Shown in pieces: positions 2,835-26,367 of a stretch of DNA of 64,000 nucleotides (its first letter is position 1; each line of letters begins with the position of its first letter). The DNA is taken from IMG/VR virus record IMGVR_UViG_3300029305_004897, positions 4,046-68,045 of that record, one strand, 5' to 3'. This DNA comes from a virus. Its lineage: Duplodnaviria; Caudoviricetes. Below the pieces are notes generated by a model. That model saw only the letters and a program-made list of their open reading frames with translations. It searched no databases and was not told the DNA's origin. The position numbers and the translations under genes are program-made.

Positions 2835-4385
2835 ATGGCAAATTTGATTCCCTACAGCGAGGAATACATCGAATCGCTGCAGGAAGCAGAAGAATTTGAC
2901 ATGGATGCGGTACAGGCATTTACGGAAGCGTACCATAATACACTGCGGTTTGCGAAGAATGCCCGTAATACGATCCGTGATGCGAATTCTAATGTAAACA
3001 AGACCATGTCTCTGAGCCGGTATACGAAATCCAGCGTGAATACGTATCTGGAAAATCCGGAGACGAATGAAAAACAGCTCCGGGATCTTTCCCGGTACCT
3101 GTACAATACAAGTTCTCAGTACAGACGTCTTCTGCAGTATTTTTCGCAGATGCTTGTCTGGTCGTACATCATGTATCCGATGAATGTGGATGTGATGACG
3201 GCAGATCCTGAGGCGATCCGAAAGGCATATCTGAAAGCTTTGAAATCCATGAGCGTGATCAATGCGCCCCATGAATTTGGCAAGGCCATGGAAATTTCCA
3301 TCAAGGAAGGTGTCTTTTATGGTTTTGTGAATGAGACCAAAGACAGTTTTCAATTTTTGCAGCTTGACCCGGATTATTGCCGGATCAATGCGGTGGAAGA
3401 CGGTTGCTATACGTACCAGTTTGACCTGAGCTATTTTGATATGTATGCGGATGAACTGGAACTGTACCCTACAGATTTTCAGTCGGCATACAATTCATAT
3501 AAGGCGGGTTCTGATACGGTGCTTCGTTGGCATGAATTTGACGCCAAGAAGACGGCTTGTTTCAAAGCGGATGAAAGTGTAAACTTCCCTATTCCGCCCT
3601 TCGTGTCTCTTTTCTCTCCTCTGGCTGATATCGAGGATTACAAGAGCATTTCCAAGGATGCTTCTGAATCCAGCAACTACAAGGTTGTTTATCTCAAGAT
3701 GCCGGTGGATGAAAAGGGACATCTGAAGGTGCCGAAGCCGCTGTGTATGCAGGCTTACAATGCTTTGCTGTCAATCCTGCCGGATGGTGTAGGGGCGTTC
3801 CTGACACCTTTGGATGTAGATTTTGTTAACTTCAAGCAGAACACGGTGCTTCAGGACACGACACTGGTTGTGGAAGCAGAGAATACATATTGGCGGGCTG
3901 CCGGTGTAAATGCGTTGATGTTTGGAGCAGGAGACGATCCTTCTTCTTATGCACTGGAAACCAGTATTCACTCTGATGAGTCTGTGTGTTTCCGATTCTT
4001 GCGGCAGGTTGAACGGTGGTGTAACCGTCGGCTGAAACAGATTTCTGGAACGCAGAAATTTGCTGTACAGTTCCTGGATGTGACCCGGTACAACTACAAA
4101 CAGATGAATGAGTTGTATATGAAAATGGGTCAATACGGACGGCCGGTACGTCAGGCAATTGACGCTACACTGTCGTTTACTCCCGATATGACTGCCGGGC
4201 TTTCGTTCCTTGAAAATACGGTACTTGCTATGTACAACAATGAAGTACCTATGCAGAGCTCCAACACGATGAGCAGTGATGACGAAGGCGGCAGACCTAC
4301 CAACGATTCCAAGGGTGAGGGATTGTCTGAGGCTGGAGAACAGACTGCGGATTCCGGTGGAAATCAGAACCGGGTGACGGAATAA
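2835..4385 (+). CDS. Portal protein
   Basis: 516 aa directly after terL with an acidic low-complexity C-terminal tail (GGRPTNDSKGEGLSEAGEQT) typical of SPbeta-like portals. Confidence 0.8.
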   Translation: MANLIPYSEEYIESLQEAEEFDMDAVQAFTEAYHNTLRFAKNARNTIRDANSNVNKTMSLSRYTKSSVNTYLENPETNEKQLRDLSRYLYNTSSQYRRLLQYFSQMLVWSYIMYPMNVDVMTADPEAIRKAYLKALKSMSVINAPHEFGKAMEISIKEGVFYGFVNETKDSFQFLQLDPDYCRINAVEDGCYTYQFDLSYFDMYADELELYPTDFQSAYNSYKAGSDTVLRWHEFDAKKTACFKADESVNFPIPPFVSLFSPLADIEDYKSISKDASESSNYKVVYLKMPVDEKGHLKVPKPLCMQAYNALLSILPDGVGAFLTPLDVDFVNFKQNTVLQDTTLVVEAENTYWRAAGVNALMFGAGDDPSSYALETSIHSDESVCFRFLRQVERWCNRRLKQISGTQKFAVQFLDVTRYNYKQMNELYMKMGQYGRPVRQAIDATLSFTPDMTAGLSFLENTVLAMYNNEVPMQSSNTMSSDDEGGRPTNDSKGEGLSEAGEQTADSGGNQNRVTE

Positions 4386-4587: not shown

Positions 4588-6204
4588 ATGGAAAGAAAAT
4601 TTATGAGCATTCCCGTGGAGTACACACTGGCGGATATTGTTGACATTAACGATGATCTGGCCGGCGGCAGTCTGCGGGTTGCGTATACAGGTGATAATCG
4701 GAATGGGTCAGTTATTGAGCAGATTGCTTTTGAAAAAGCGATCCCTACGCTGGCATACAAGCCGGTTGTTGCACATCTGATTGATGAGAAAAATGATTTT
4801 GGCGGGCATGATGGTGAAGTAGAAGAAACGGAAGACGGAGATGTTCGGTATGTGAATATTACGGAACCGGTCGGCGTTGTTCCTGAGCGGACACCATGGA
4901 AGTTTGAAGTGGTGGAAGAAGAAAGTGGAATTCATAATTATTTTACGATCAATGTGATTCTTTGGAAACGCCAGAAATCATTTGATATCATACAAAAGAA
5001 GAAGTTTACCAAACACAGCATGGAAATTGAAGTTCTGGATGGGTATTCAGACAATGAAGGGTATCACATCAATGATTTTAAGTTCCTTGCTTTTTGTTTG
5101 TTGGGGGACGATGTGGAGCCGTGTTTTGAAGGCTCCCGGCTGGAGCTGTTTACTGTGGACAAGTTCAAGGAAGAACTGGAATCGTTCATTGCTGCACTCC
5201 AGAATTACAGTGAAACTCAGCTGCCCTTGGCAGTAGAGTCTTCTGCCGGTAACGGTGGAAATACAGAAAATCAAAGAAAGGAGGACTCGGGAGCATTGAA
5301 CAGAATTGAGGAATTTACCAAAATCGGTTTTGATCCCGAAACTCTGGGACTTGATCTCGATGCGATGTCCGACGAGGATGTAACTGCCAAGGTATTTGAG
5401 CTGACCAGCAATCTGATGGAGCAGATTCGCGAATGCATGGCGGAACAGACCTTCGACACGGAATGGGGCAAGATCCAGAGATACTGGATGGTGGACACCA
5501 ATCTTGAAACCAAGGAACTGTATTGTTATGACGAACAGGATGGAAAGCTGTATGGCTTCTCCTATTCTATGTCCGGCGATGCTGTAACAGTTGATTGGGA
5601 ATCCAAGAAGCGGATGAAGTTTACCATTGTTGAATTTGTAGACGGCGAAGAAGCACATCAGGCCACCTTTGCTGCGGAAGTGATTGCGGCAAGAGACGCT
5701 GCGATGACTGCGAAGTATAGTGAGCTGAATGATAAGCTGACTGCTGCCAATGAAACCAAGACAGAACTGGAAAATCAGCTGGCCGCTGCCAACAATGAAA
5801 AGGCAACTATTTTTGCTGAAAAGGTTGCCGCACAGGAACAGATCGATGCTCTGAACGGAAACATTGCCGCTCTGCAGGAAACCGTTTCTGCGCTGGAATC
5901 TTTCAAGGCCGGTATTGAAGCCGAAGAGGTTATTGCCGCCAAGAATGAGCTGTTTGCCAAGTGGGAGAATCTGCTGGGCACCTCTGACGGCTACGTGGCT
6001 TTGAAATCTGAAATGGATCAGTATGAACTTGCTGATCTGGAAACCAAGCTGAAGTGTCTGTTTGCAGACACTAAGGCAAATTTTGAGTACAAGCCTTCTG
6101 CAAAGCCTTCGGCAAGACTGCCTGTAGGTACTGCAAAGGACAACGCTGACGCCGGTGATTATGGCGGACTGTATGAAAAGTATGGCATTAAGCCTGTAAA
6201 GTAA
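4588..6204 (+). CDS. Prohead protease/scaffold fusion
   Basis: N-terminal protease-like region (AYTGDNRNGS, HSMEI, FCLLGDDVEPCF) followed by an acidic coiled-coil scaffold; start moved to ATG 4588. Confidence 0.7.
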   Translation: MERKFMSIPVEYTLADIVDINDDLAGGSLRVAYTGDNRNGSVIEQIAFEKAIPTLAYKPVVAHLIDEKNDFGGHDGEVEETEDGDVRYVNITEPVGVVPERTPWKFEVVEEESGIHNYFTINVILWKRQKSFDIIQKKKFTKHSMEIEVLDGYSDNEGYHINDFKFLAFCLLGDDVEPCFEGSRLELFTVDKFKEELESFIAALQNYSETQLPLAVESSAGNGGNTENQRKEDSGALNRIEEFTKIGFDPETLGLDLDAMSDEDVTAKVFELTSNLMEQIRECMAEQTFDTEWGKIQRYWMVDTNLETKELYCYDEQDGKLYGFSYSMSGDAVTVDWESKKRMKFTIVEFVDGEEAHQATFAAEVIAARDAAMTAKYSELNDKLTAANETKTELENQLAAANNEKATIFAEKVAAQEQIDALNGNIAALQETVSALESFKAGIEAEEVIAAKNELFAKWENLLGTSDGYVALKSEMDQYELADLETKLKCLFADTKANFEYKPSAKPSARLPVGTAKDNADAGDYGGLYEKYGIKPVK

Positions 6205-6226
6205 AAAAATAAGGAGGATTTATATC

Positions 6227-6736
6227 ATGGCATATGCAATTGTAAGAACCGATCTGCTGACCGGTACTGATGATCGGGCCCATCTGACCCATTTTAAGTA
6301 TATGAAGGACGGCGAACTGGCCGCTATTGAACAGGGTAACTTTGTAACTCTGAAGAAGCTGTATGAAGAAGACGGTGTGATTCCCGATCGCGAAGTATGG
6401 GAAGCCGGTGATATGACTGCTGACACTGCTCTGCATGATCTGGTGCTGGTAGCATCCGTAGAACTGAATGATGACGATAGTGATATCGATCTGGGTACCT
6501 ATATTAATGTAGCTGGTCACATCTGCAGAGGTTATTTCCTGCACAACAGAAACTTCTTCTCTGTTACCAAGGAAGCTCTGACTGGTGCTGAACCCGCTCA
6601 GGGTATGATCGTAGAAGCCGCTGAAGGTACCAAGCTGAATGTTGTAGCATCTGAAACCGGTGCTACCAAGGTTGGTACTATCGTAGCCGTTGAAGTAGTT
6701 GGTAAGGATACTTACTACGTAATCAATGTTGCGTAA
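6227..6736 (+). CDS. Head decoration/cement protein
   Basis: 169 aa beta-rich protein between scaffold and capsid; strong RBS and highly biased codons. Confidence 0.55.
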   Translation: MAYAIVRTDLLTGTDDRAHLTHFKYMKDGELAAIEQGNFVTLKKLYEEDGVIPDREVWEAGDMTADTALHDLVLVASVELNDDDSDIDLGTYINVAGHICRGYFLHNRNFFSVTKEALTGAEPAQGMIVEAAEGTKLNVVASETGATKVGTIVAVEVVGKDTYYVINVA

Positions 6737-9144: not shown

Positions 9145-10042
9145 CAGAGAGGTTTATAAAGCTCGTCTTCAACATAATGGTGTAACCAGACGCGACAGAG
9201 AGTTATCATGGTTGCGTCGTCGTATTTCTGATGGAGTGGGGGATCTTCTCGCATCTCACGAAGTTGAGTTTCAGGGGGAGAAAATTTTGATTACATCAGA
9301 AATAACTGAATTTGATTCTGTCAAGAAATTTACTTGTTCTCCGGAATATGGTGTCGGATATGGAGATTATTTCATTTGGAATAACATTCACTGGCTTGTT
9401 ACATCGCGAGATTATGATGATGAAGTCTATGTTCGGGGGAAAATCACTCAGTGCAATTATTATCTGACTTGGCAAAACGAAACCGGCGAGATTGTTGGCC
9501 GTTGGGCAGTAATCTCTCAGGTTACCAGATATAATAACGGTGTGTTCGAAGGCAAAGTCGTAGATAATATTGAGTCAACGCTTTCTGTTCAGATTCCGTG
9601 TGATCCTGAAACGATGAAGCTGAAGCGTGAAAAACGGTTCCTTGCAGATATATATCTTCATGAACCATATGCGTATAAAATTACGCAGAGAGACGTTCTT
9701 TCAGGATATTACGGCGATTCCGGCTTGATTACATGGGCGGTTTCCCAGGATGTGTTCAATCCGGAAACTGATAATGTAGAGCTTATGATTGCCGATTATT
9801 GGAAGCCATCTGGGGCAAGAGAAATTTCTGGCCCCTTGGCGCTGCGTATAGGACAGGAAGGTAGATATTCTTCATCCGTCACATCTGATTGGGCAATTCT
9901 GGATGGTGACTTTTGTGCTCTTATAATCGATGGAGAAGATGCGATTCTTAAAGTTCCTATGGATAGGCGGTATGTCGGACATACTGTTCGGTTAACAGAT
10001 GGTACGCAGGAAATTTCTGTCGTTATCCAATCTGTATATTAA
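9137..10042 (+). CDS. Putative head closure/neck protein
   Basis: Beta-rich ORF; start moved to ATG 9137 after GGAGGT. Assignment is positional. Confidence 0.5.
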   Translation: MADREVYKARLQHNGVTRRDRELSWLRRRISDGVGDLLASHEVEFQGEKILITSEITEFDSVKKFTCSPEYGVGYGDYFIWNNIHWLVTSRDYDDEVYVRGKITQCNYYLTWQNETGEIVGRWAVISQVTRYNNGVFEGKVVDNIESTLSVQIPCDPETMKLKREKRFLADIYLHEPYAYKITQRDVLSGYYGDSGLITWAVSQDVFNPETDNVELMIADYWKPSGAREISGPLALRIGQEGRYSSSVTSDWAILDGDFCALIIDGEDAILKVPMDRRYVGHTVRLTDGTQEISVVIQSVY

Positions 10043-13447: not shown

Positions 13448-14068
13448 ATGGCCCGGGTGAAAAGTATTGAGGAGCAGCTGGCGGAGATGCTGAGGCCAGA
13501 GAATTTATCAAAAAGTGGCAAGATCAACGGGAAATCGGTTGATCAAATCTTGGTGAGTGAAGCTGCCAGATTGAAAGAGATTTTAGCAAAACATATTCGG
13601 GCATATTATGATTCTTATTCCCCTAAAGTATACATCAGACATGAAAAATATGGAATGGTGAAACATCTTTTAATGGACGTAGTTCCAAAAAATGGTTCTA
13701 TTGCTATTTATTTTGACGAAAACCATGTCTGGGGTCCCAGTGTTATTGATGAGGAAAAGTATGGATGGGGATTTGAGCCGATCTTGATTGATAACGGCTG
13801 GAGAGTGAAGTCTTCTGCGCCACATGCGAATATTCATAGATTTGGATATTATGAAGGATATCATTTTATTGAGAAGGCGATCCGTGAATTTGAGAGAACG
13901 AATACATATGGGTTAAAGGTTGGTGTTCAGGTAGATCCGAATGCTCTGAAAGGTTCTTCCGCATATAAAGATTTTGCTTATAAAGAAAATTCGGATGGTA
14001 CTTGGAGGCGGACATTCAACATGAGTAAATCTTCGAAAGATGTATATAGCAGTATGGGAGTCTGGTAA
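13448..14068 (+). CDS. Hypothetical tail-associated protein
   Basis: 206 aa with AAGGAGG RBS, directly upstream of TMP. Confidence 0.45.
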   Translation: MARVKSIEEQLAEMLRPENLSKSGKINGKSVDQILVSEAARLKEILAKHIRAYYDSYSPKVYIRHEKYGMVKHLLMDVVPKNGSIAIYFDENHVWGPSVIDEEKYGWGFEPILIDNGWRVKSSAPHANIHRFGYYEGYHFIEKAIREFERTNTYGLKVGVQVDPNALKGSSAYKDFAYKENSDGTWRRTFNMSKSSKDVYSSMGVW

Positions 14069-14082
14069 GAAAGGAGGAAATT

Positions 14083-16959
14083 ATGGCAAGTACATTAAAA
14101 GTTTTGGTATCTGCAAATCCTGAAGCAAGTACAGAGCGGATACTGAAAGATATTGATAATATTCAAAAACAGATTACAGCCAGTAATAAAGAAATCTTTG
14201 TTGATGCTCGTATCAAAAAGATCCACATTGATAAATCGGCGGCGAACTATGTCAAGAACGAGCTCAAGAAAATGTTCAATACCATTACAGTGGATATTGA
14301 TGGAAATGTGCTTGGGTTTGGTGCGGGTGCTGCTACGGCGGTTAGAAAGCAGACGGACGAGATCCGGAAGGCAATTTCAGCGGCGCAGAAGAAACTTGGC
14401 AATATTCAGATTGATTATGGTGCTAATTTCACTGCTGCCGATGGCACGAAATTTGAACAGTTCCGGCAGGAGCTTGAGAGGATGGCAAAAGATCTCGGCT
14501 CTGTGATACCGTCCGACGTTGCCATTATCTCCGACCAGATGGATGTGTTTGCCCATGCGATGCTGGAAGCGAAAAAGGCTACAGCGGAGAATGCGAAGGA
14601 ACTTGAGAAATTTGCAGCTGCCTGTCAGCGGGCAGACAAGATGGCGATGGATATTGAACAGAACTATCTTGGTAAGGCGAATGCTGAACAGAAAGAGAAA
14701 TACGACGGTCTGTCCAGCAAACTGAGTTCCTGGCGGGCGAATCCGAACACTACGACACAGGACATTGATGGGATTGCAAATGAACTGGAAGTTCTGAGAA
14801 CCGGAATCAAGGCTACTGCAGCGGAAAGTGACAAAGCGGCGAAGGCTGCCAATGCTCATGCTGCGGCTATGACAAAGTCTTTGAACTCTGCACGGTTGGC
14901 TCTTGATCAGATTAAGGCAAAGAACTGGGATATCATGGACGACAGTCAGAAACAGGAGTATCAGGATCTTTCTCGTGAGATCATTACGCTCCGAAATTCT
15001 GGTAATCTCACTGATGAAGTTATGGACAAGCTGGTTGCTCGGATCAAACTTCTTGGGACAGAGACTGACAAGACAGCTTCCAGCGTAAAGGTTGCTGCGG
15101 CGGCATCTGAAAAAGAAGCTAAGGCGTTGCAATCTGCGCTTACTGCATTTGATAAAGCATGGGCCAGTGTGGAACGGATGGATCTTAGTGGTTTGACGGA
15201 TGAGCAGAAGAAGGCTTATCGGGAAATCAAGGAGATTGTTGATCTTGTGAATGCTGACCGTGGAGGAGCTTCTTCCGGGGTGATCAAGCAGTTCACTGCA
15301 GAGATTCTGCGGAACAAGGGCGACCTGCAGGCGATGCTTGCGAATCTGAAGAAGGTGCAGTCGGAAGCGAAGAGGACGGACACTGCTCTGAAAAGCATGG
15401 GTGACAAACTCGGCGGGTTTGAGCAGAAATATCTGTTAGATCTGGATACTGTTGATCTTAATAAGCTGGAAGACTTCAAGAAGAAGATCGCAGAATTGCA
15501 GGCAGAAGGTATGCCTGCGGCCAAAACCGTTCAAGAGCTTGGGGATGAGATCCAGGAGTTTATGCTCCGGATTCAAACCGGAGGAAATCGAAGCAACTTC
15601 TTATCCTCGCAGTTTGGTGAATTGATGAAGCAGTTCGAGCGGATTCAGAACATTGGCGGAGATACACAGGGGCTTGATCTGCGCGGGATCAAATCTGTTG
15701 AGAATGCTCTTGCAGAGCTGATGATTTTTTCCAAGAGTTACAGCGGAACCATTCCAGAAGAAATCGAAGCGATGATTCTGGAAATTCAGGTACAGTTCAA
15801 CAAACTGGGAACAATTGACATCAGCAAACTTCGCAGGGTTCAGGAACTTCTGACTTCAGTCCCGGCGTTCCAGACAGATGATTACTATGTTGACGTAGCG
15901 CATGATCTGATGCGTCTTGTTGATGCGGCCGGCAAAGCTGCGGATGCTGTGGATGATCTTCATCATGAGATGAGTGATGATTCACGGTCGCAGGGATTCC
16001 AGAATCGGGTCAATGATGATATCCGTAAGTTGGACGAGTTCTATGAGAAACATACAAAGCTGAGAAACAATAAAGCATTCTCTGACGAGTATCAGACAAT
16101 CCGGGCAGGCTTTGATGTTAAGGCTTCGGAAGAGGCTATTAAGAAGAACGAAGACGCCATGAAGGATTATATCCATCGTGCGAAAGAAGCCGGTCTGACC
16201 ACGGATACGTTTGGCGAAAAGATTCAGAAGGCGTATCAGAAGTTTGGCGGCTGGGCGATTGTCAGCGGGACGTTCATGCGGATTACGCAGGCGATCCGAG
16301 ACATGATAAATAATGTCGTGCGGTTAGATTCTTGTTTAACAGAGCTTCGTAAGGTTACCGATGAAACATCTGATTCATACGATGCTTTCATGCAGAGAAC
16401 CAAGAATACAGCAAAAGAAATTGGTTCTACTGTGACCGATCTTGTTTCGGCTACGGCAGACTGGGGCCGTCTTGGCTATAGTTTATCTGACGCTGAAGAA
16501 CTTGCGAAGATCTCGACGATTTACGCCAACGTAGGCGATGATATTGAAGGCATTGACGATGCAACGGCCAATCTTATCTCTACTATCCAAGGTTTTAAGG
16601 AACTTGACGCTTCTGATGCTCTGAATGTAGTTGATGTTCTGAACCGTGTGTCCAATGAATTCCCTGCATCTGCCGGCGGTCTCGGCGAATCTTTGAGACG
16701 GTCTTCTGCAGCTCTCTCTGCTGCCGGGAATACACTTCAGGAATCTGTCGCTCTGATTACTGCAGCTGATGCTGTACTTCAGGATCCTTCATCGACCGGT
16801 ACAATGATGAAGACCATTTCTATGTACCTCCGCGCAGCAAAGACGGATCTTGAAGCAGCCGGAGAATCCACTGACGGAATGGCGTCATCTGTATCTAAGC
16901 TTCGTTCGGAAATCATGGCTCTTACCGGTAACCGTGTTGATATCATGTTGAATGAGGAT
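14083..16959 (+). CDS. Tape measure protein, exon 1 of 3
   Basis: 959 codons, Ala/Lys/Glu coiled coil ending in a TP901-like core region (LDSCLTELRKVT, WGRLGYS, NRVSNEFP); ends ...AAT GAG GAT at the intron 1 splice site. Confidence 0.92.
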
Positions 16960-18295
16960 TAACTCTGGTCCTCAATAAACCTGCTCAAATCGGGAAACAA
17001 CCAGAGATGGTCAATCCCGAGGGTAAGACTTGAATGTAAAAAAATATATGGCAATAACATAAAGAAAAGATGTGATCTTTATAGAAGATTTAACTGGCAA
17101 GAAATTTGGACAATGGGAAGTTTTATATTATGTGATAGATAAAACAAAATCCCGTGGTGCCAGATGGTACTGTAGGTGTAGCTGCGGAACCGAGCGATCT
17201 GTTTTAGGTAAATACCTAAAAAATGGATCGAGCACTTCATGCGGTTGTACTCGAAAAGTAGATTGGGTTGGTAGAAGAATTGGCAGGCTCACAATACTAT
17301 CTGTTTACGAAGATGACGGTGATACATATTGTATGTGTAAATGTGATTGCGGCAATGAAATTGCAATAAAAAAGCGTGGCATACTCGGAAGGCATTCATG
17401 TGGATGTAGACTCTATGGGGCTACAGGAAACGAGCATACAATAGATTTGACAGGGCAAAAATTTGGACGATTATTCGTAAAAAGTATGAAGTACACAAAA
17501 GGTAGTTTAAGTGAGTGTGAGTGTTTATGTGATTGTGGAAACTTGATTGTTGTACCAGCATGTAGACTTACCTCTGGGAACACAACTTCATGTGGGTGCA
17601 TCCATTCTCCGTCACTAATTGGGAACACATACGGCAGATTGACTGTTGTTGAAGAATCTGGCAGAAAAGGTACCCAAAAATTATGGAAATGTATCTGTGA
17701 ATGTGGCAATGAAACATATTTAACATCGCATATATTGGCAAGTGGCCATACCCATTCATGCGGATGTTTGAGAAGTGAAAAGGTCAGTCGTAGAGAAGTT
17801 ATGATTTCAGAGATTTTATCATCCATGGGTATTAAGTATATATCGGAAAAGAGTTTTGATGACTTAAAAGGAGTTGGGAATAAATCTTTGAGATTTGACT
17901 TTTTTGTTCCATCTATAAACACTGTCATCGAATATGATGGGATGCAGCATTTTAAACCAATACAATACTTTGGTGGAGAAACACATTATAATCGACAAAA
18001 AGAAAATGATTTAATAAAAGATTCATATTGCGATATGAATGGAATTCGCCTGTTGAGACTGCCATATACTCTTACAGACGATCAAATTTATGAGCGGATA
18101 ATCGCTCTTTTTTAATTTACATTCAAGAATCCCGTAACGACCACAGCTATATGAGTAATCATATGGCGTACGCAGGTAAACTATGCATAACGTATAGTGA
18201 ATGGTATGGTCTGCTCTGCAAATATAATCCAATATGAAATTGCAGAGGCAGGCAGAAATGACCTGCCCCCTCTTTTTAGAGGAGTAACAAAAAGG
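16960..18295 (+). mobile_element. Group I intron 1 (IA-like) with homing endonuclease, 1336 nt
   Basis: P1: exon GAGGAU with IGS GUCCUC 16968-73 (U.G at the splice site). P3 ACCUGC 16979-84 / GCAGGU 18172-77. P7 GACCA 18139-43 / UGGUC 18207-11 with a P7.1 hairpin. A perfect 12-bp stem 17029-40 / 18116-27 brackets the ORF. Ends in G; splicing gives NED|TFKSTY in frame. Confidence 0.93.
17072..18115 (+). CDS. Intron-encoded putative homing endonuclease (Cys-rich repeats plus Vsr/DUF559-like nuclease)
   Basis: Four repeats of DLTGxKFGRLxV...CxCxCG...SCGC, then LRFDFFVP...VIEYDGMQH...NDLIKD...GIRLLRLPY; AT-rich; sits in the P6 loop; GTG start. Confidence 0.8.
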   Translation: MIFIEDLTGKKFGQWEVLYYVIDKTKSRGARWYCRCSCGTERSVLGKYLKNGSSTSCGCTRKVDWVGRRIGRLTILSVYEDDGDTYCMCKCDCGNEIAIKKRGILGRHSCGCRLYGATGNEHTIDLTGQKFGRLFVKSMKYTKGSLSECECLCDCGNLIVVPACRLTSGNTTSCGCIHSPSLIGNTYGRLTVVEESGRKGTQKLWKCICECGNETYLTSHILASGHTHSCGCLRSEKVSRREVMISEILSSMGIKYISEKSFDDLKGVGNKSLRFDFFVPSINTVIEYDGMQHFKPIQYFGGETHYNRQKENDLIKDSYCDMNGIRLLRLPYTLTDDQIYERIIALF

Positions 18296-18715
18296 ACTTT
18301 TAAGTCAACTTACCAGATTATTAAGGAAATTTCAGGAGTCTGGAAAGATCTTACCGACGTATCTCAAGCAAACATTCTGAACTTGCTGGCTGGCAAGAGA
18401 AACGCAAACGCAGTATCAAGTTTGATCGAGAATTTTGATATGGCTGAGGCTGCTCTCAACGCTGCGAACGATGCTGCCGGTTCTGCTATGACGGAACATG
18501 CCAAGTGGCTTGATTCTATCGAAGGGAAAATCAATCAGTTCAAGGCCAGTTTTGAAGCGCTTTCTTCCAGTGTTATTAGTTCTGATTTTATCAAGCATCT
18601 GGTTGATGGTGCAACATCTCTTATCTCTCTGCTTGATGCAATCACGCAGAAAATTGGTCCTCTGCCCGGGCTTTTAATGGGCATTACATCTTTACTTAAT
18701 GTATCTGGCTTCGGT
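18296..18715 (+). CDS. Tape measure protein, exon 2 of 3
   Basis: Exactly 140 codons (TFKSTYQIIKEISGVW...AGKRNAN...WLDSIEGKINQFKA...NVSGFG), continuing the TMP core. Confidence 0.92.
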
Positions 18716-19042
18716 AGGCATCCATCGACTTGCCTTTCAAATATGCCGAAGTATACCCTGATGGTGACATGGAACGAGCTTGCAGCGTAATCGTGCTGCT
18801 GGCAAGAGGGTATTGGAAAAACGTCTTAAACTGCATCCCGGTTCACAGATCCGGGTCGGGAACGAAAGAATCCGCAGCCAAGCTCTCAGTGCAAACTGCA
18901 GAGAAGGTTCAGAGACTATAATAGGCGTACGGTTGACCCACGATACGGGAATCAATCGTGAAGGGATAGTCCAGTCAAATCGATATTGCTTGTGCAAATC
19001 GAAAAATCTGTAAACGGTTGGCCGCCGTTGGTCAAAAAAGGC

Positions 19043-19071
19043 TTGACAAATAACCCGAACAGATGTACAAT
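19043..19071 (+). promoter_or_regulatory. SigmaA-type promoter inside intron 2
   Basis: TTGACA-17 nt-TACAAT upstream of the GGAGGT RBS of the SLOG gene. Confidence 0.75.
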
Positions 19072-19100
19072 ATATTCAGAACAACTGTTTGGAGGTAGCG

Positions 19101-19562
19101 ATGTACGTATATATTACCGGATCTCCGGAGATCACTTCCCTGCCGGAGACTGTCACAAAACGGTTTGATCAGATCGTCGATAAAGGTTACGATATTCTGG
19201 TTGGAGACAATAAAGGATTTGATTCCACTATCCAGAAGTATTTTGCCATGCGTAAATATCGTCGGGTGACTGTCTATGTGAGTGGGCAGCATACGAGATA
19301 TAACGAGGGAGCATTTAGTGAAGCTCACATTCCTGGTTTGCCGGGAGATTCTGCTGTAGAGTTTGCTCGGTTGAAGAATGACGCCATGATTGCGGATGCG
19401 GACTGTGCGGTTGCTGTATGGAACGGGTATAGTCGTGCTGTGCGGCAGGACCTGGAGGAGCTTTTGGATTGTGGGAAGAAAGTTTTGCTTTACTGGAATG
19501 GGAAGATGGTTTTGGTACGGGATGACGGGTCGTTTTCTATTGACAATTTTCTTTATTGGTGA
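19101..19562 (+). CDS. SLOG-superfamily (YspA/YpsA-like) protein, intron cargo
   Basis: 153 aa; MYVYITGSPEI, DILVGDNKGFD, KNDAMIADADCAVAVWNGYSRAV match the Rossmannoid SLOG pattern (GSR...GdaxGxD...D...WDGxSxGT). Confidence 0.65.
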   Translation: MYVYITGSPEITSLPETVTKRFDQIVDKGYDILVGDNKGFDSTIQKYFAMRKYRRVTVYVSGQHTRYNEGAFSEAHIPGLPGDSAVEFARLKNDAMIADADCAVAVWNGYSRAVRQDLEELLDCGKKVLLYWNGKMVLVRDDGSFSIDNFLYW

Positions 19563-19568
19563 TATAAT
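19540..19568 (+). promoter_or_regulatory. Perfect sigmaA consensus promoter for the toxin gene
   Basis: TTGACA-17 nt-TATAAT with an extended -10 TG, embedded in the end of the SLOG gene. Confidence 0.8.
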
Positions 19569-19590
19569 GGAGAAAATTGGAGGTGGAGTT

Positions 19591-20115
19591 GTGGCAAATT
19601 TACCTGGGCAGGAATATATTGATATTGGATGTTGGTTGAAAAGTAAATATCTATATCATATCAAGGCATCTTATAATAGAACAAAACGCTTACAAGTTCT
19701 TCGTGGGCAGGTATGGTACTGTGATTTCGGATATAACATTGGAACAGAGAAGAATAAGAAACGTCCAGTTCTTATTATATCCAGTAATAAGATAAACACA
19801 AGCGAAAAAGTGGTAGTTCTTCCAATTACGGATGCTAAGAATAAATTGAACAGCAATCATTTGCCCGCTCAAAATTCGTGGTATTTATTATATTCGAACA
19901 CCCAGGATCCTAATAATATGACTCACCCTCATCGTTCCATACCCGGCAATAATACACCGTACGCCTTTTTGATAAAAGACTCGCTGGTTCAATGCGAAGA
20001 AATACGATGTGTTAGTAAAGCAAGATTGGATGATGCCCAAGGATGCGTAGGCGTTTTATCAGCAATAGATATGAATAATATTGAGAATAAAATGCGAAAT
20101 ACATTTTGCTTATAA
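19591..20115 (+). CDS. MazF/PemK-fold endoribonuclease toxin, intron cargo
   Basis: 174 aa from GTG 19591 after GGAGGT; RGQVWYCDFGYNIGTEKNKKRPVLIIS, VVVLPIT and SLVQCEEIRCVSKARL are hallmark PemK/MazF motifs. Confidence 0.85.
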   Translation: MANLPGQEYIDIGCWLKSKYLYHIKASYNRTKRLQVLRGQVWYCDFGYNIGTEKNKKRPVLIISSNKINTSEKVVVLPITDAKNKLNSNHLPAQNSWYLLYSNTQDPNNMTHPHRSIPGNNTPYAFLIKDSLVQCEEIRCVSKARLDDAQGCVGVLSAIDMNNIENKMRNTFCL

Positions 20116-20120
20116 AACTC

Positions 20121-20149
20121 TTGACATACCTCTTTTATTGTGTTATAAT
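20121..20149 (+). promoter_or_regulatory. Perfect sigmaA consensus promoter downstream of the toxin
   Basis: TTGACA-17 nt-TATAAT with an extended -10 TG. Confidence 0.8.
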
Positions 20150-20155
20150 AAATGC

Positions 20156-20272
20156 ATAACATGATTAAGTCCCACAAATTACAGTGGGTACCTTATATAC
20201 TTTGTAACGAAGCCGTATGACCGAAAGGTATAGCTTCTGGAGCACACCGATTTAATTGCGGTGTGTTTTCCT
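20156..20272 (+). ncRNA. Candidate small RNA (pseudoknot, GAAA hairpin, terminator)
   Basis: Stem CCCAC 20171-75 / GTGGG 20184-88; loop TTACA can pair with TGTAA 20203-07; hairpin GAAGC...ACC-GAAA-GGT...GCTTC; terminator GCACACCG/CGGTGTGT plus T-rich tail. Confidence 0.55.
20242..20272 (+). terminator. Intrinsic terminator inside intron 2
   Basis: 8-bp stem GCACACCG/CGGTGTGT followed by TTTCCTT. Confidence 0.6.
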
Positions 20273-20288
20273 TATTAGGAGGTTCCGT

Positions 20289-20948
20289 ATGAACAAGAGA
20301 CCTGATGCCAGCAGTGCATTGAAATTCCTAACCATTTTATCCGGAATATCATCTGTTATATTATTGCTTGTAGCCTTTTATGTAAGTGTAGAAGATGAAT
20401 ATCTTGCTGGAACCGTTTGGGGAATATTTGCGGGATCTTTGGTAGCTTTTGCCGGTATGTTTGTTGTCACTGGGTTCCATAATGTTTTACTGGATATACG
20501 GGATCAGAAATATGAACATACTACTTTGCTTAGATCTATTCGAGATGCTGTCGATGGCGGTAAGGCAGCCGCAGAAGAAGCTATGGCAGAAGCTGAACGC
20601 CTGGATAGATGGAAAACTAAATGGCATAGAAGAGTTGATAAGTCTGTTGGTGAGGGCGGTATAACTGAAGATTTTGGCACATATATGCATAATCGCATAG
20701 ATTCGCGTTTCGATATTCCAAATAATGAAGATGAATGGTATTCTGGGTTGTTATCTGCATTTTCTGCAGCACTATCTAATGCAAAATCTTCTGACTGCGA
20801 ATACAAAAGCGAACTGGAAGCTTGGAAGGAAAATTATTTGAAGAAAATTGATGCTTCCCTTTCGGCTGGATCCATTACTTTAGACAAGGCAGAATCGCTA
20901 AGAGCAAAAGTACGTTCTTATACAAAAATCCCTGAGAGCCAGAAATGA
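20289..20948 (+). CDS. Membrane protein with two N-terminal TM helices, intron cargo
   Basis: 219 aa from ATG 20289 after AGGAGG; two hydrophobic stretches (FLTILSGISSVILLLVAFYV; GTVWGIFAGSLVAFAGMFVVTGF) then a soluble helical domain. Confidence 0.7.
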   Translation: MNKRPDASSALKFLTILSGISSVILLLVAFYVSVEDEYLAGTVWGIFAGSLVAFAGMFVVTGFHNVLLDIRDQKYEHTTLLRSIRDAVDGGKAAAEEAMAEAERLDRWKTKWHRRVDKSVGEGGITEDFGTYMHNRIDSRFDIPNNEDEWYSGLLSAFSAALSNAKSSDCEYKSELEAWKENYLKKIDASLSAGSITLDKAESLRAKVRSYTKIPESQK

Positions 20949-20990
20949 CTCTCTTTTTCTTTGGCCTGACCAGCCAAGTAATGATGACTG

Positions 20991-23900
20991 ATATTTGATT
21001 ATAAAATTGATATTGATGGCACAATTTTTGATAATGGCATATGGGCTACGTTAGATACGAATTCAAAAAAATATAAGAAAATTGCTTCTGAAGTAGATAA
21101 TTACAATCGTATTCTCGGTACTGACAATGGGACTAAAGAAGCTATAGAAAATATAGCGAAGCAGGTAGATGCGTACGATGCTTCTCTTGCAAAAACGATG
21201 AGAAGCCAACAAGAATTGGGTAAGAGTGGAGATGAGTATGTTGGGTCTCTTCGGAAGCAAGCTACGCAGACAATGATTGCTACTGCCAAGACAATCGCAT
21301 ATAATGCAGCCTTGTCTCTTGGTGTTTCCGCTGTTGTAGGTCTTGTTACATGGATTGGCAAGAAGCTGTATGATGCACTTACTGTGTCTGCAGAAGAAAT
21401 GGAAAATTGCGCAGCGGCCGCTCAAAAAATGAGTGATTCTATAGATCAGAATAAAGCTTGGATTTCTGAAATAACAGAATTACGAGAAAAATTGTCTGAT
21501 ACAACACTCTCTTTATCTGAGCAGCGAGAAGCCAAAGAAAATCTTTTAGAAATTCAAGATGCCATTATAAAGAAATATGGAGATGAAGCTGCTGCTGTCG
21601 ATCTTGTTAATGGCTCTTATCAAGAGATGATAGACATGCTTGATAAGGTAAATAAAAAGGAATTTAACAATTGGCAATCTACTAACAGAAAAGAGATAGA
21701 AGAAGCTATCGATAAATATGGCACTTCTGATAAATATGCAAAGTTTATAAATGGTTATTCATACCAATATGGTACATTCTTAAATCGTGCAAAAAAAGAA
21801 GATGCAGACAAACTTCGTAGTATTTTTAAGCTTGTAGATTCAAACCCATATGACGATTACGATGACCAAAGAATACTTCAGGTTAATCCTGGTAAAAATT
21901 TAGGGGAATTAAAAGATTCATTATCTGATCTTTACGCAATTATTCAATCATATAATTCCTCTGGAATGTATAATGGATTGCTTGATATAATAGGTGAGAT
22001 TTCATCTGATGTAACAAACGATGCGGCTGATTATGAGGAGACGTATCTTCATTATATGAAAAATATAGTGTTGGTAAATGATACATTATCCGATAGTTAT
22101 CAGCAAACACAGAAATCTGTCAGTGAATTTTATCAAGAAGTCGCTTCTGGTAATCCCGAAGAAGTAGCGCAAGCATACGGTCAGTTACAGAATGATGTTT
22201 CTCAATTTATCGAAACCATAAAAACAAACGCTGGAGAGAATTCTGAAGAGATTGCAGAGTATTATAAAAATACGTTTAATGATATTTTAGCTAAAGCTAA
22301 AGGAGAATCTGTAAAAGTTGACCTCAAAGCAGATACCAGCAATCTAAAGACCGAAGTAAAATCTGTTTTAGAAGGGCTTGCAAATCTTGGATATGATGAT
22401 GCTATTGAGATCAAGGGTTCCCTTGGATCTCTTTCGAAGCACTCTGAAGCATATAAAGTTCTGAACCGTCTTGCCGGTGACCTTGACACTACCATGGCCG
22501 GGGTTATTGACAAGCTTGAAGAGTATGGCTACTTTGGTGAAACTTCCATTCCTGAGGTCAATGATGAGATTGACAAGGCTGTACAGAGCTATCAGAACAT
22601 CATTGCGACTTTGACAGCGGTTCGCGAAGAACAGGACGCAACTGGCCAGATCTCTACAGCAACCATGATGAAGCTTACCGCTCTTGGCGAGGATTATGCT
22701 GAACTGATCAAGACGGAGACGAATGCGCTTGGCGAGCTTGTTTATGTGTTTGACACGGACGCCGCTGAAAAGTTCGCTCTGGATCAACTGCAGATTGCAA
22801 CCAATGCGGTGATTGCTGCCGACGGTACAGAAGAACAGATTGATGCTTTGAACAGCTATTATCGTAGTATGCAACCCTTAACTTCTCAGATGGAAGGTTA
22901 TATTGCTACGGTAAAAGATCTCGATGAAATCCAGAAAGAAGTTGCCAAGGGTACACAGTATACGGAAGAAGAAATCAACGAACTTCTTAAAAAGTATCCT
23001 CAATTAACGGCAGTGGTTGATGAATCTACTGGTAAGTACAAGATTACGGAAACCAGTATTGAATCACTTAAAGGCAAGTTCACCAGTCTTATCCAAACCA
23101 TCATTGATGTAAAAACAGAGATGGCAAAGCTTATGGCTGTGTTTGCAGCCAAAGAAGCTCGTGACGGATGGGCTGGCGCTGAGCAGTGGGTTAAACTGAT
23201 ACAGAAGAAGATCAAAGAAACCGGCGCGAAGACCATAGAAGAGCTTGAAAAGGAACTTGGCGTTACATTTGCAGATGATCTTCGGGGGACTGTACAGGTT
23301 CTCGTGGATACAACACCGGCAGTTGACAGTTATGAGGATGTTATTTCCGGCGAAAAAGATGCTGCTGATTTCATTTATAACCCCACTACTGACAAATCCG
23401 ACCCGTGGAAAGAGGCTTTTGAGAAAGAGTATCAGGCCAAGAAACATGCTCTGGCAATGGAACAGATTGATCAGAAAGCATATCTGGATTGGCTTGATGG
23501 AGCATACAAAAAGTATTTCTCCGATATGTCAAAGTATCAGGACGAATATTATCAGTATGAAGAAGAAGTCTTCAATGGCCGCCGGGCTCTCATTGATGAG
23601 CATATTTCTGATCTCGAAAAAGAATATGAATACCTTGGTGATGAGCCGAAAGTCATTGAGGAGCTGAACCGGCTGCTGGAAGAAAAAAATGATTTGCTTT
23701 CTGAAGAACAGCGTAACACCATCAGCTCTAAGATTCTGCAATATCAGGAGGACGGGTACCGCAAGCAGATTGCTGCCATAGAAGATCAAATTGACCTTCT
23801 GGATGAAAAAGAAGGAACCGAAGAACAGACTATTGAGTGTTATAAACAGATGATCAATCTGCTGAGCAATATTAAGTCTATTTATGCTGGCATCTATGAT

Positions 23901-25544
23901 GAGAACAGTGAACTGATGATATCTCTTAATCGTGAGATCGCAGATATGTTTTCTGAGATAAATGATATCAAGAAAGAGATCTGGGAAGCTCAACGGGATG
24001 CTCAGGTCGAAGCGCTTGAAGAAGAACAAGATGCTATTGAGGATTATCAGGATGCTATTGAAGACATTCTGGATGCTACGGTAGATTTGATCAAACGGGA
24101 GACCGAGGCTGAAATTGAAGCACTGGAAGAAGCTCGGGACGCTCGGGAGGAATATTACGATGCAGAACTCGACCAGATCAAAGAAGTCGCTGATGCCAGG
24201 AAAGAAGCTCTTGAGGATGAGCTTGAAGGCTACCGCAAAATTATTGAAGCTAAGAAAGAAGCTCTTCGGAATGAAGCTGAAGAAGAAGACTACAATGATG
24301 AGGTTGCCAAGCGTTCTAAAGAGATTAGCGACCTGCAGTCCCGGATTGATGTTCTGAAATTGGATGATTCCAAGGCTGCAGCTGCAGAACGGTTACAGCT
24401 GGAAAGCGAGCTTCAGACTAAAAAAGATGAGCTTGCTAAGTATCAGCGCGATCATTCTCTTGATAAGCAAATTGAGGCACTTGACAAAGAACTTGAAGCC
24501 TTCGAGGAAAACAATGACAGTAGAATTGAACTGATTGACAAGGAGCAGGAACGTGAAGAACAACGGATAGAAGAATTAAAGAAGAAAGATCTTCAGGCTT
24601 ATGATGATCGTATTGCCGCGCTCCGTGCATACCTTGAAAAAGAAGGGGTTCTTTGGAGAGAGGCCAATCGTCGGATCCGTGAAGAAGGTGATTCTTTATG
24701 GCTGGAACTCCGTGCTTATGCGGAAGAATATACCCGGGATGTTGAATCTCTGGAGCAGGCATGGGAATTTGCCCTTACCGGCGTTCAGAAATATAATGAC
24801 GGCATCAGAGATCTTCTCGCTACCAGCAATAAGATGGACAACATCTTCAATCGGAACGAAAGTACGATTAAAGACCTGGAGAACTCTGAGTATACCGGAG
24901 AATTTACTGTGTCTCAGAAAAACAGCATTGCTGAAATCCGAGCACAAATGAAGGCAAATTCTGCTGCTTGGTGGGATGCACATAATGCTGGTGATGAAGC
25001 CGCAAAGAACTGGTGGTCTGATGAAAACCAGAGACTGAAGGACAAACTGAACGACATCCTTGGTGGCGAGTATCTGGTGTATAACGCTAAAAAAGGTACG
25101 TGGTCTTTCAATGGTGTTCCGTTTTACGATATGCCTATTTATCATAAAGGCGGCGTCGTAGGTGATTTTGGTTCTATGCAGCAGGATGAACTTCTGGCTG
25201 TTTTGAAAAACCGAGAGATGGTTCTTACCGAACCTATGCAGGACACGCTGGCAAAGTATATTGATTTTGCTAAGAATGCTTCTTTTGCCATCACTTCCAT
25301 CTTATCTGATGATCCCGTGAAGAATATTGTTGCCGGGCTGAAATCCGGCAGGACATTCGCCGGGGATACACTTAGCACGATCCATGTGGATAAGCTCTTT
25401 GAATTCCATGCAGATAATGTGACTAAGGAGACGTTGCCTGATTTGAAGAAGACTCTTCGGGAGACGGCAGATTATACTATTCGCCAAATGGAAGACCGTC
25501 TTTCTCGACGCGGAGTTAAAACCAAAGCAAAAACAACACTGTAA
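20991..25544 (+). CDS. Tape measure protein, exon 3 of 3
   Basis: Frame is open from 20988, well upstream of the ORF-track ATG at 21198; long coiled coil ending in the YHKGGVVG...AVLKNREMVLT motif typical of TMP C-termini. Confidence 0.92.
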   Translation: MFDYKIDIDGTIFDNGIWATLDTNSKKYKKIASEVDNYNRILGTDNGTKEAIENIAKQVDAYDASLAKTMRSQQELGKSGDEYVGSLRKQATQTMIATAKTIAYNAALSLGVSAVVGLVTWIGKKLYDALTVSAEEMENCAAAAQKMSDSIDQNKAWISEITELREKLSDTTLSLSEQREAKENLLEIQDAIIKKYGDEAAAVDLVNGSYQEMIDMLDKVNKKEFNNWQSTNRKEIEEAIDKYGTSDKYAKFINGYSYQYGTFLNRAKKEDADKLRSIFKLVDSNPYDDYDDQRILQVNPGKNLGELKDSLSDLYAIIQSYNSSGMYNGLLDIIGEISSDVTNDAADYEETYLHYMKNIVLVNDTLSDSYQQTQKSVSEFYQEVASGNPEEVAQAYGQLQNDVSQFIETIKTNAGENSEEIAEYYKNTFNDILAKAKGESVKVDLKADTSNLKTEVKSVLEGLANLGYDDAIEIKGSLGSLSKHSEAYKVLNRLAGDLDTTMAGVIDKLEEYGYFGETSIPEVNDEIDKAVQSYQNIIATLTAVREEQDATGQISTATMMKLTALGEDYAELIKTETNALGELVYVFDTDAAEKFALDQLQIATNAVIAADGTEEQIDALNSYYRSMQPLTSQMEGYIATVKDLDEIQKEVAKGTQYTEEEINELLKKYPQLTAVVDESTGKYKITETSIESLKGKFTSLIQTIIDVKTEMAKLMAVFAAKEARDGWAGAEQWVKLIQKKIKETGAKTIEELEKELGVTFADDLRGTVQVLVDTTPAVDSYEDVISGEKDAADFIYNPTTDKSDPWKEAFEKEYQAKKHALAMEQIDQKAYLDWLDGAYKKYFSDMSKYQDEYYQYEEEVFNGRRALIDEHISDLEKEYEYLGDEPKVIEELNRLLEEKNDLLSEEQRNTISSKILQYQEDGYRKQIAAIEDQIDLLDEKEGTEEQTIECYKQMINLLSNIKSIYAGIYDENSELMISLNREIADMFSEINDIKKEIWEAQRDAQVEALEEEQDAIEDYQDAIEDILDATVDLIKRETEAEIEALEEARDAREEYYDAELDQIKEVADARKEALEDELEGYRKIIEAKKEALRNEAEEEDYNDEVAKRSKEISDLQSRIDVLKLDDSKAAAAERLQLESELQTKKDELAKYQRDHSLDKQIEALDKELEAFEENNDSRIELIDKEQEREEQRIEELKKKDLQAYDDRIAALRAYLEKEGVLWREANRRIREEGDSLWLELRAYAEEYTRDVESLEQAWEFALTGVQKYNDGIRDLLATSNKMDNIFNRNESTIKDLENSEYTGEFTVSQKNSIAEIRAQMKANSAAWWDAHNAGDEAAKNWWSDENQRLKDKLNDILGGEYLVYNAKKGTWSFNGVPFYDMPIYHKGGVVGDFGSMQQDELLAVLKNREMVLTEPMQDTLAKYIDFAKNASFAITSILSDDPVKNIVAGLKSGRTFAGDTLSTIHVDKLFEFHADNVTKETLPDLKKTLRETADYTIRQMEDRLSRRGVKTKAKTTL

Positions 25545-25546
25545 TA

Positions 25547-25572
25547 ATCCGCCTTGAGCGGCTTTTTCTTTT
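25547..25572 (+). terminator. Weak terminator-like hairpin
   Basis: CCGC-CTTGA-GCGG then a T-rich run. Confidence 0.35.
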
Positions 25573-25584
25573 GGAGGTGATTTT

Positions 25585-26367
25585 ATGGCTTTTCAGGCTG
25601 AACACATACTCTATAACGGAATCTCCTCCGAGAGGTTCGGTTTAAGATTATATAATGAAAATGGGGGTCTCGACGATGCAACCGGGACCTCCTTTTCTAT
25701 TTTACGCTCTTCCCTGCGCGGAGGACAGTCTTTCGTTTATATGGGCAGAGAAGCAAGGGATCCTATGCCGATGCAACTTTCTCTTGTGTCAGATAAACCT
25801 TTGGATTCCGCCATGCAGGGTGCAATACATAAATGGCTTATTGGCCATGATGGATATAAAGAACTGCGGATTGTACAGGCGGACATGAGTACGCTACGTA
25901 TAGGATGTATTTTCTATGAGTTGAATTATCTGCAGGTTGGAAATGATACTGTAGGTGTTTCTGTAGAAGGAGAGTGTGATTCATGCTATTTCCGGGGCAA
26001 TGATATTCATATTACACGCTCCGGGGAGTCAGGATCTTTTCAAGTTCAGAATACATCGGATGTGAATGAATATATTTTTCCTGAGATGAAAATTTCTATG
26101 CCGTCAGGCGGCGGAAGTTTTTCTTTTATCAATGAAACAGATAATTCCAGAGAATCTGTGTTTGATACTTTGTCTGGCGACGAAGAGATATTGTTGGACA
26201 ATTTCCGCAAGATTATTGTTTCTTCTCATGGTTTTCGGCGTCTGTCCAATTTTAACAAAAAGTGGATTCGCCTGCTGCCGGGGAAAAATACGTTTTCATT
26301 TGCTTTTACAGGTGGTTCCGGTAAAATAGAAATGAGGATCCCCGTTTACAGAATGACAGGACAGTAA
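25585..26367 (+). CDS. Distal tail protein (Dit)
   Basis: 260 aa directly after TMP; YNGISSERFGL start and NKKWIRLLPGKN near the end. Confidence 0.8.
   Translation: MAFQAEHILYNGISSERFGLRLYNENGGLDDATGTSFSILRSSLRGGQSFVYMGREARDPMPMQLSLVSDKPLDSAMQGAIHKWLIGHDGYKELRIVQADMSTLRIGCIFYELNYLQVGNDTVGVSVEGECDSCYFRGNDIHITRSGESGSFQVQNTSDVNEYIFPEMKISMPSGGGSFSFINETDNSRESVFDTLSGDEEILLDNFRKIIVSSHGFRRLSNFNKKWIRLLPGKNTFSFAFTGGSGKIEMRIPVYRMTGQ

Follow-up and report, generated by a model that had tools for sequence, protein, structure and literature searches.

Group I introns of phages are usually viewed as selfish pairs of a ribozyme and an endonuclease. T4 sunY (nrdD) and other endonuclease-bearing phage introns are group I elements in essential phage genes with an open reading frame (ORF) outside the core, and in sunY this ORF is followed by 3'-terminal RNA elements. 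Introns in tape measure protein (TMP) genes are known from phage ICP1, whose endonuclease-bearing TMP intron was validated by RNA-seq (PMC10448857), and from mycobacteriophage Cluster J (PMC3706429). Here we describe intron 2 of the TMP gene in a gut phage represented by a 68-kb IMG/VR virus record (IMGVR_UViG_3300029305_004897; ~45% complete according to CheckV), of which a stretch of 64,000 nt, hereafter the window, was analyzed. Our analysis supports positions 18716-20990 of the window (2275 nt) as a genuine group I intron with a multi-gene cargo of ~1.9 kb. As the best explanation of the whole, we consider it likely that intron 2 is a functional self-splicing intron with an exchangeable slot for accessory genes at its 3' side. 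Whereas sunY-type and other phage TMP introns carry one homing endonuclease gene, intron 2 carries three unrelated genes of non-nuclease families, which are swapped in relatives.

The layout of intron 2 resembles that of IStrons (Clostridioides difficile CdISt1 type; bioRxiv 10.1101/2023.11.20.567912), in which a 5' core is followed by protein genes, the 3' splice site lies kilobases away, and the insertion into a coding gene is silenced by splicing. IStrons, however, are moved by their cargo, an IS200/605 TnpA/TnpB transposon, while intron 2 has neither transposase nor TnpB and carries variable accessory genes with their own promoters in a structural gene of a phage. Several functional non-endonuclease genes also reside in the giant group I intron ND5-717 of hexacoral mitochondria, which is still precisely removed; these are core mitochondrial genes located in P8 and fixed in their lineage, and corallimorphs use back-splicing (PMC6545197). 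In contrast, the cargo of intron 2 is accessory and variable, lies 3' of P9.1, and has a phage host. Phages are further known for PeSL-type modular shuffling, in which promoter cassettes are exchanged. In such shuffling and in HEG-islands (PMC10448857), as may be the case here, accessory genes are exchanged at conserved short regulatory sequences, and a neighboring homing endonuclease could co-convert them; those systems lie between genes, whereas the island of intron 2 is nested inside a ribozyme inside an ORF.

Our literature search turned up no case, in phages or in bacteria, of a group I intron that lacks an endonuclease and carries a variable cargo of several genes, a result that leaves subscription journals mostly uncovered and is not proof of absence. 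An earlier sequence-only reading of this DNA had known of no described case of the architecture. This holds for a multi-gene cargo in phages, for which no precedent was found, but not for the layout, for which IStrons and sunY are precedents, nor for the carriage of genes as such, for which ND5-717 is one.

The intron 2 ribozyme and its relatives

The catalytic core of intron 2 occupies about its first 300 nt, in agreement with the sequence-only reading, and ends after P9.1 with a conserved GTCAAAA. In P1, the end of exon 2 (CTTCGGT, 18709-15) forms 7 bp with the guide GCCGAAG (18745-51), including a U.G pair at the splice site. In P10, the guide TCAAATAT (18737-44) pairs at 8/8 positions with the start of exon 3, ATATTTGA (20991-98). 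The two guides directly adjoin each other, and the resulting joint sequence (18737-51) has exactly the layout of a group I internal guide sequence. Across 18716-25544, ATATTTGA occurs a single time (~0.09 occurrences expected per 2.5 kb), right after the terminal G of the intron at 20990, and its site is the only register that restores the TMP frame: removal of the 2275 nt yields GFG-IFDYK in frame, as had been predicted. P3 (18821-26/18923-28) and P7 (GACTAT 18914-19/ATAGTC 18966-71) complete the set of signatures named in that reading (P1 with U.G, P10, P3, P7, and terminal G), all of which were located, and P2, P2.1, P3, P4-P6, P7, P8, P9, and the P9.1 hairpin together fill 18753-19028. As a side observation, a 14-nt stretch at 18920-18933, spanning P3' together with the 5' strand of P8, has 93% complementarity to 19956-19969 inside the second cargo ORF, which may be due to chance or may represent a pairing that competes with core folding.

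Because the core scores below the threshold of the Rfam group I model RF00028 (discussed below), independent comparative evidence was sought. Among TMP relatives in viral contigs, a further intron lineage was identified that interrupts the TMP at the identical codon (the L004 family, hereafter the sister lineage), and a conserved 18-mer from its P4/P6 region retrieved ~45 further copies; a 23-mer of the window's P7 region is absent from the viral contigs in exact-match searches. The introns of the window, L110 (a closer relative, see below), and L004 occupy the same TMP alignment column, at which the TMP of six relatives (L002, L003, L006, L008, L009, and L013) is uninterrupted. An nhmmer profile of 15 sister introns matches the window once, at 18740-18922 (E=4.9e-8) and nowhere else, and the introns of the two lineages are therefore homologous.

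The two lineages are ~60% identical, and their helices are kept via two-sided changes. This applies to P1 (CTTCGGT/GCCGAAG in the window, GCTGGGT/GCCCAGC in the sister lineage), the P1-loop hairpin (AGGCA/TGCCT, AAACCC/GGGTTT), P2 (ATACCCT/AGGGTAT, ATACTCC/GGAGTAT), the base of P6 (CC/GG, GC/GC), and P7 (GACTAT/ATAGTC, GAGCAT/GTGCTC). P3 is ACGTCT/AGGCGT in the window, ACGACT/AGTCGT in L113, CACCT/AGGTG in L110, and CCGAC/GTCGG in L004; P8 is ACGGTTGA/TCAATCGT in the window and GCGGTTGC/GCAATCGT in L110, and P9 likewise shows compensatory changes. In the sister lineage alone, RNAalifold recovered P1, the P1-loop hairpin, P3, hairpins of the P5 region, P6, P8, and P9.1. The U before the 5' site, the G before the 3' site, and a P10 of 5-7 bp are retained in all sister copies (24+).

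Of the indirect evidence for splicing, we regard that from the start of exon 3 as the strongest. No in-frame ATG occurs before 21198, and in the 69 codons that precede it, neither a start codon nor a Shine-Dalgarno sequence was found. In a comparison of the window with L110, exon 3 is near-identical over its first 16 residues and ~35% identical over the remainder, and the 69 codons comprise 14 identical ones, 15 with synonymous differences, and 40 with non-synonymous differences. Judging from this pattern, exon 3 is under coding selection from codon 1, and its translation from there, with no start or Shine-Dalgarno sequence at hand, therefore requires ligation to exon 2. We infer that intron 2 is spliced in vivo; the ligated mRNA would read GGCTTCGGT directly followed by ATATTTGAT.

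At the other end, the last 30-45 nt of the intron fold as a hairpin across lineages. Its stem covaries (TTGGC/GCCAA in the window, TGGG/CCCA in L110, and, for the sister lineage, AATAATCT/AGATTATT in L052 and TTGTATCA/TGATACAA in L106), and the loop YGACCAY is conserved. A long-range clamp between tail and core end had been proposed from the sequence, with two pairings. That of GCCAA (20973-77) with 19018-22 did not hold up, as GCCAA pairs locally with TTGGC (20961-65) in the covarying stem, but the loop TGACCA could contact TGGTCA at 19029-34, a pairing for which no supporting covariation was found. The features of the TMP gene and of intron 2 are collected in Table 1.

Table 1. Positions of the TMP exons, the two introns, and the elements of intron 2 in the window.
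Feature	Position	Strand	Description
TMP exon 1	14083-16959	+	PhageMin_Tail (Pfam); phrog_4211 profile positions 553-788
Intron 1	16960-18295	+	contains homing-endonuclease ORF 17072-18115; context for intron 2
TMP exon 2	18296-18715	+	ends GGC TTC GGT (GFG); phrog_4211 profile positions 808-943, E=2.5e-33
Group I core	18716-19037	+	~320 nt; P1 loop hairpin, guide, P2, P2.1, P3, P4-P6, P7, P8, P9, P9.1
Promoter 1 (predicted)	19043-19071	+	TTGACA-17-TACAAT; 11/12 sigma-70 consensus; begins 6 nt past conserved core end
Cargo ORF1	19101-19562	+	153 aa; SLOG/DprA/LOG-like Rossmannoid protein (predicted)
Promoter 2 (predicted)	19540-19568	+	TTGACA-17-TATAAT, extended TG; 12/12 consensus
Cargo ORF2	19591-20115	+	174 aa; PemK/MazF-like toxin; GTG start after GGAGGTGGAG; alternative in-frame ATG 19567
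Promoter 3 (predicted)	20121-20149	+	TTGACA-17-TATAAT, extended TG; 12/12 consensus
Structured leader/candidate small RNA	20156-20282	+	127 nt; minimum free energy -35.6 kcal/mol, z = -2.95; between promoter 3 and ORF3
Cargo ORF3	20289-20948	+	219 aa; helical, hydrophobic N-terminal helices
Cargo-closing terminator-like hairpin	20934-20960	+	GAGAG/CTCTC + T-run
Intron 3' tail	20961-20990	+	hairpin TTGGC/GCCAA, loop CTGACCA, 13-nt linker, terminal G 20990
TMP exon 3	20991-25544	+	starts ATA TTT GAT (IFD); phrog_4211 profile positions 1983-2578

The cargo and its variation among relatives

The three cargo ORFs seen in the sequence-only reading were confirmed, as was its observation that none is a homing endonuclease or transposase: no such family was found in Pfam, PHROGs, NCBIfam, or PADLOC. 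Profile searches of intron 2 detected no LAGLIDADG, GIY-YIG, HNH, His-Cys, PD-(D/E)xK, or EDxHD endonuclease, and no cargo ORF matched TnpA, TnpB, or any transposase in Pfam, PHROGs, or NCBIfam. A search for terminal repeats on either side of the cargo, which would be a transposon signature, found none.

ORF1 has no Pfam family above cutoff. The top Foldseek matches of its AlphaFold2 model (predicted local distance difference test score, pLDDT, of 94) are ShosA (8zva), YpsA (2nx2), LOG, and DprA, with a probability of ~1.0, template modeling scores of 0.55-0.64, and modest E-values of 1e-3 to 3e-2, and the family alignment, with 940 representative relatives, has invariant G7, G35-D36, and G39. 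The modeled fold assigns ORF1 to the SLOG Rossmannoid group, with a Gly-rich loop of the nucleotide-binding type. Its copies are 84-93% identical in all window-like introns. ORF2, downstream of this SLOG-fold gene with its own predicted promoter, matches PF02452 (E=1.2e-18, 67.7 bits with a cutoff of 23.1, profile positions 2-107 of 109) and phrog_1936, a MazF-like growth inhibitor. It retains an RP motif and a PIT motif, which we take to sit where the catalytic Arg and Thr of MazF lie. ORF3 has no family match in Pfam, PHROGs, NCBIfam, or PADLOC; its AlphaFold2 model is all-helical with low confidence, and the single-sequence model is too uncertain for a fold search. We predict from the model that it is a membrane-type protein.

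The cargo promoters are predicted to be active, and scans of shuffled sequences gave only weak matches overall. As a separate observation, the element at 20121-20155, which includes promoter 3, has a several-fold raised summed depth and loose ends in gut metagenome contigs, and therefore recurs in other genomic contexts. A candidate small RNA had been noticed in the cargo beforehand, and a structured element was indeed located between promoter 3 and ORF3. It has no Rfam family, and its end, immediately upstream of the ribosome-binding site of ORF3, is a terminator-like hairpin (CACACCG 20243-49/CGGTGTG 20259-65) with a U-run. The hairpin that closes the cargo has an equivalent at the same place in L110, with a perfect 9-bp stem and a T-run.

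Closer relatives of the window intron, reached via ORF1 homologs (L109-L114), and a contig from a 2022 gut metagenome (run X7) have the core, ORF1, and tail in common with the window, and differ in the middle genes. L109 and L110 match the window through the core and ORF1 to 19595 and rejoin it at 20905; in between are an unrelated 149-aa gene and a shorter ORF3 homolog, which in L110 shares the N- and C-termini of the window's ORF3. X7 departs from the window at 19529 and returns at 20278. L113 and L114 contain an extra 1.5 kb between ORF1 and ORF2, including a skipping-rope RNA and a 166-aa gene. This RNA (L113:2163-2243; RF02924, 57.6 bits with a threshold of 36.7) lies upstream of the 166-aa ORF, which has no family match; a ToxN/AbiQ-like identity of the protein was considered and dropped, as neither Pfam nor PADLOC supports it. 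The breakpoints fall in two zones: at 19521-19595, which holds promoter 2 and a start codon, the homology of L110, L111, L113, and X7 ends or restarts, and 20281-20307 holds the ribosome-binding site and start of ORF3.

In the sister lineage, 24 complete introns range from 2003 to 3987 nt, and all have mosaic cargo, encoded on both strands; none of them is an empty allele. Their cargo is a mosaic of ~10 recurrent genes. A Zn-ribbon protein (C1) is present in 17/17 introns analyzed, and further cargo includes a retropepsin-like protein, a coiled-coil protein, and, in two copies, a 227-aa PemK-like protein (E=8e-20). In L004, a TTGACT-17-TATAAT promoter (9224-9252, minus strand) of the minus-strand Zn-ribbon gene straddles the 3' splice site, with its -35 box in exon 3 and its -10 box in the intron tail. 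This placement may be the reason why AAGTCAAT is strongly conserved where exon 3 begins in this lineage. Cores shared between introns with different cargo, for which the sequence-only reading had suggested looking, thus occur in L109-L114 and X7. Together with the mosaic sister introns, these different cassettes between a shared core, ORF1, and tail give comparative support to its idea of the intron as a landing pad.

Proposed mechanism and competing explanations

The data are explained most economically by an intron that splices in cis and in which the periphery on the 3' side has turned into a slot for exchangeable accessory genes. In this model, the guide at 18737-51 would form P1 with the final 7 nt of exon 2 and P10 with the initial 8 nt of exon 3, and GTP attack and exon ligation would then produce an mRNA for one TMP of ~2,600 aa, with splicing hiding the cargo from the protein. 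The slot between the last core hairpin and the 30-nt 3' tail would tolerate any insert, and would hold three independent transcription units for a SLOG-fold protein, a MazF/PemK endoribonuclease toxin, and a small membrane protein, with a putative role in toxicity or competition. Their host-type sigma-70 promoters would allow the cargo to be expressed independently of late TMP transcription. Having no endonuclease of its own, the intron would be inherited with the TMP gene, and its spread would probably rely on recombination or on co-conversion with intron 1, which bears an endonuclease and lies 420 nt upstream; the sister lineage has no endonuclease-intron neighbor, and therefore ordinary recombination must suffice there. 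Cassettes may be exchanged between phages at the conserved promoter/ribosome-binding-site junctions, with the intron arms as homology. In this view, the intron seems to serve as a gene island that is silent and can be exchanged.

Several observations weigh against this explanation. The Infernal search with RF00028 suggested in the sequence-only reading did align the core motifs GTTCAGAGACTA and GGGATAGTCC (R/S, around P7) to the consensus, but the score of 15.8 bits (E=1.7) is below the gathering threshold of 50 bits, at which Rfam gives no group I match for intron 2. Rfam at E up to 5 also misses the cores in the loci of the sister lineage, and the same model does detect neighboring TMP introns of L006 and L010. 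The score is probably lowered by the large insertions in P2 and P5 and by the remoteness of the 3' end. Two terminator-like hairpins (20243-75 and 20934-60) lie on the TMP strand upstream of the 3' splice site, so that transcription has to read through them, or be antiterminated, to yield a full-length pre-mRNA. The low demand for TMP, only a few copies per virion, may explain why its gene tolerates such an insert. None of the tail-loop partner candidates in the sister lineage (GTCA, GTGG, GGTGGTGAC, and the P9.1 strand) covaried. As for the cargo, PADLOC gave no meaningful match and no defence family for the proteins of the window or its relatives. No MazE/PemI antitoxin family matched and no cognate antitoxin was identified in the cargo, and the MazF-like ORF of L113, with 98% DNA identity to that of the window, is split by a frameshift (3184-3501 and 3473-3778), being either a decayed toxin or an assembly error.

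The low Rfam score and the terminator-like hairpins would also fit a split TMP, in which the insert is an inactive intron relic or an intergenic island and the TMP is made as two polypeptides: a first that stops at TAA 18788-90 and a second that starts from ATG 21198 or is made from a cargo-promoter transcript. Promoter 3 could drive transcription into exon 3, and splicing is itself deduced from sequence. We nevertheless consider a split TMP unlikely. An inactive relic does not account for core helices kept by compensatory changes in two lineages, nor for the 5' U, 3' G, and P10 retained in all 24+ copies; a second start at ATG 21198 does not account for coding selection on the 69 preceding codons, which lack a start codon and ribosome-binding site, and uninterrupted homologs of the gene exist.

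It is even less probable that ORF1, ORF3, or the sister protein C1 is an unrecognized homing nuclease, which would make intron 2 an ordinary mobile intron with passengers. The constancy of ORF1 and an ORF3-like gene in the window lineage, and of C1 in the sister introns analyzed, would suit such a nuclease, and novel homing endonuclease families are still being discovered, but the cargo proteins show no nuclease family or motif, the ORF1 fold is of the SLOG nucleotide-binding type, and ORF3 is predicted to be a membrane-type helical protein.

Least probable of all, and less likely than splicing in cis, is a bipartite, trans-splicing intron, in which the TMP transcript would stop at the internal terminators and exon 3 with the tail would come from a cargo-promoter RNA, assembled for example through TGGTCA (19029-34) and TGACCA: although two same-strand terminator-like hairpins, a strong promoter upstream of ORF3, tail, and exon 3, and a conserved tail loop that, in the window lineage, has its complement at the end of the core are compatible with it, and organelles are known to perform group I trans-splicing as well as back-splicing (PMC6545197 for the latter), the second terminator also lies between promoter 3 and exon 3, the loop pairing lacks covariation and has no clear complement in the sister lineage, the last sister cargo gene is on the opposite strand, so that no co-oriented promoter feeds exon 3 there, and a protein of which a virion needs only a few copies can be supplied by simple read-through.

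Genome context and implications

Profile searches place intron 2 in the structural module of the phage, with a large terminase, portal, capsid-like protein, TMP, and minor tail proteins; megablast of 14000-26000 found no match among GenBank phages. The three TMP exons are colinear on the tape-measure profile phrog_4211, and exon 2 has 38-56% identity to 12 viral TMP loci. The ORF of intron 1 matches phrog_374/559/9084 (HNH or homing endonuclease; E down to 3e-51) and encodes 347 aa with Cys-rich repeats and a PD-(D/E)xK/Vsr-like C-terminus. The intron 1 ribozyme was not detected by Rfam in 16960-18295, and the exon 1-exon 2 junction (NED-TFKSTYQ) is colinear with NKNFKSTYQ of L004, whose TMP is uninterrupted at this site. 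X7 has 338 nt in place of the intron 1 region. RF00028-positive introns occur at the intron 1 position in L006 (5527-5825, 93.9 bits) and L010 (5248-5687, 54 bits), and L012 has an extra interruption of ~400 nt within exon 2 (6189 to 6594); because of these interruptions, we regard the TMP genes of this phage group as intron hot spots. The 3' end of intron 1 (18156-18339) has a several-fold raised summed depth and loose ends in gut metagenome contigs, and this stretch therefore recurs in other genomic contexts as well. Elsewhere in the window, a candidate ORF-less third intron at 41310-41601, which would join ORFs 37828-41349 and 41639-45424, has no Rfam match at the gathering threshold.

A wider interpretation is tentative, and to us nearly an even call, on the doubtful side: the widespread endonuclease-less TMP introns of gut phages may be a dedicated "intron island," a silent fixed site that accumulates and exchanges promoter-bearing cassettes, among them MazF-like toxins, SLOG-fold proteins, membrane proteins, and structured RNAs. 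The arms and promoter junctions would serve as portable homology, and the terminators might gate the amount of TMP, in that the state of the cargo or antitermination would determine full-length TMP and hence tail number. The ~45 sister copies in public viromes suggest that a ribozyme can serve as a neutral docking site for accessory or conflict genes inside an essential ORF, a place where gene callers and island or defence finders never look. If this is true, interrupted structural genes in metagenomic phages would need different annotation, toxin- and defence-type genes would have an added route for moving between phages, and the intron would represent a natural design for hiding multi-gene payloads within coding sequences.

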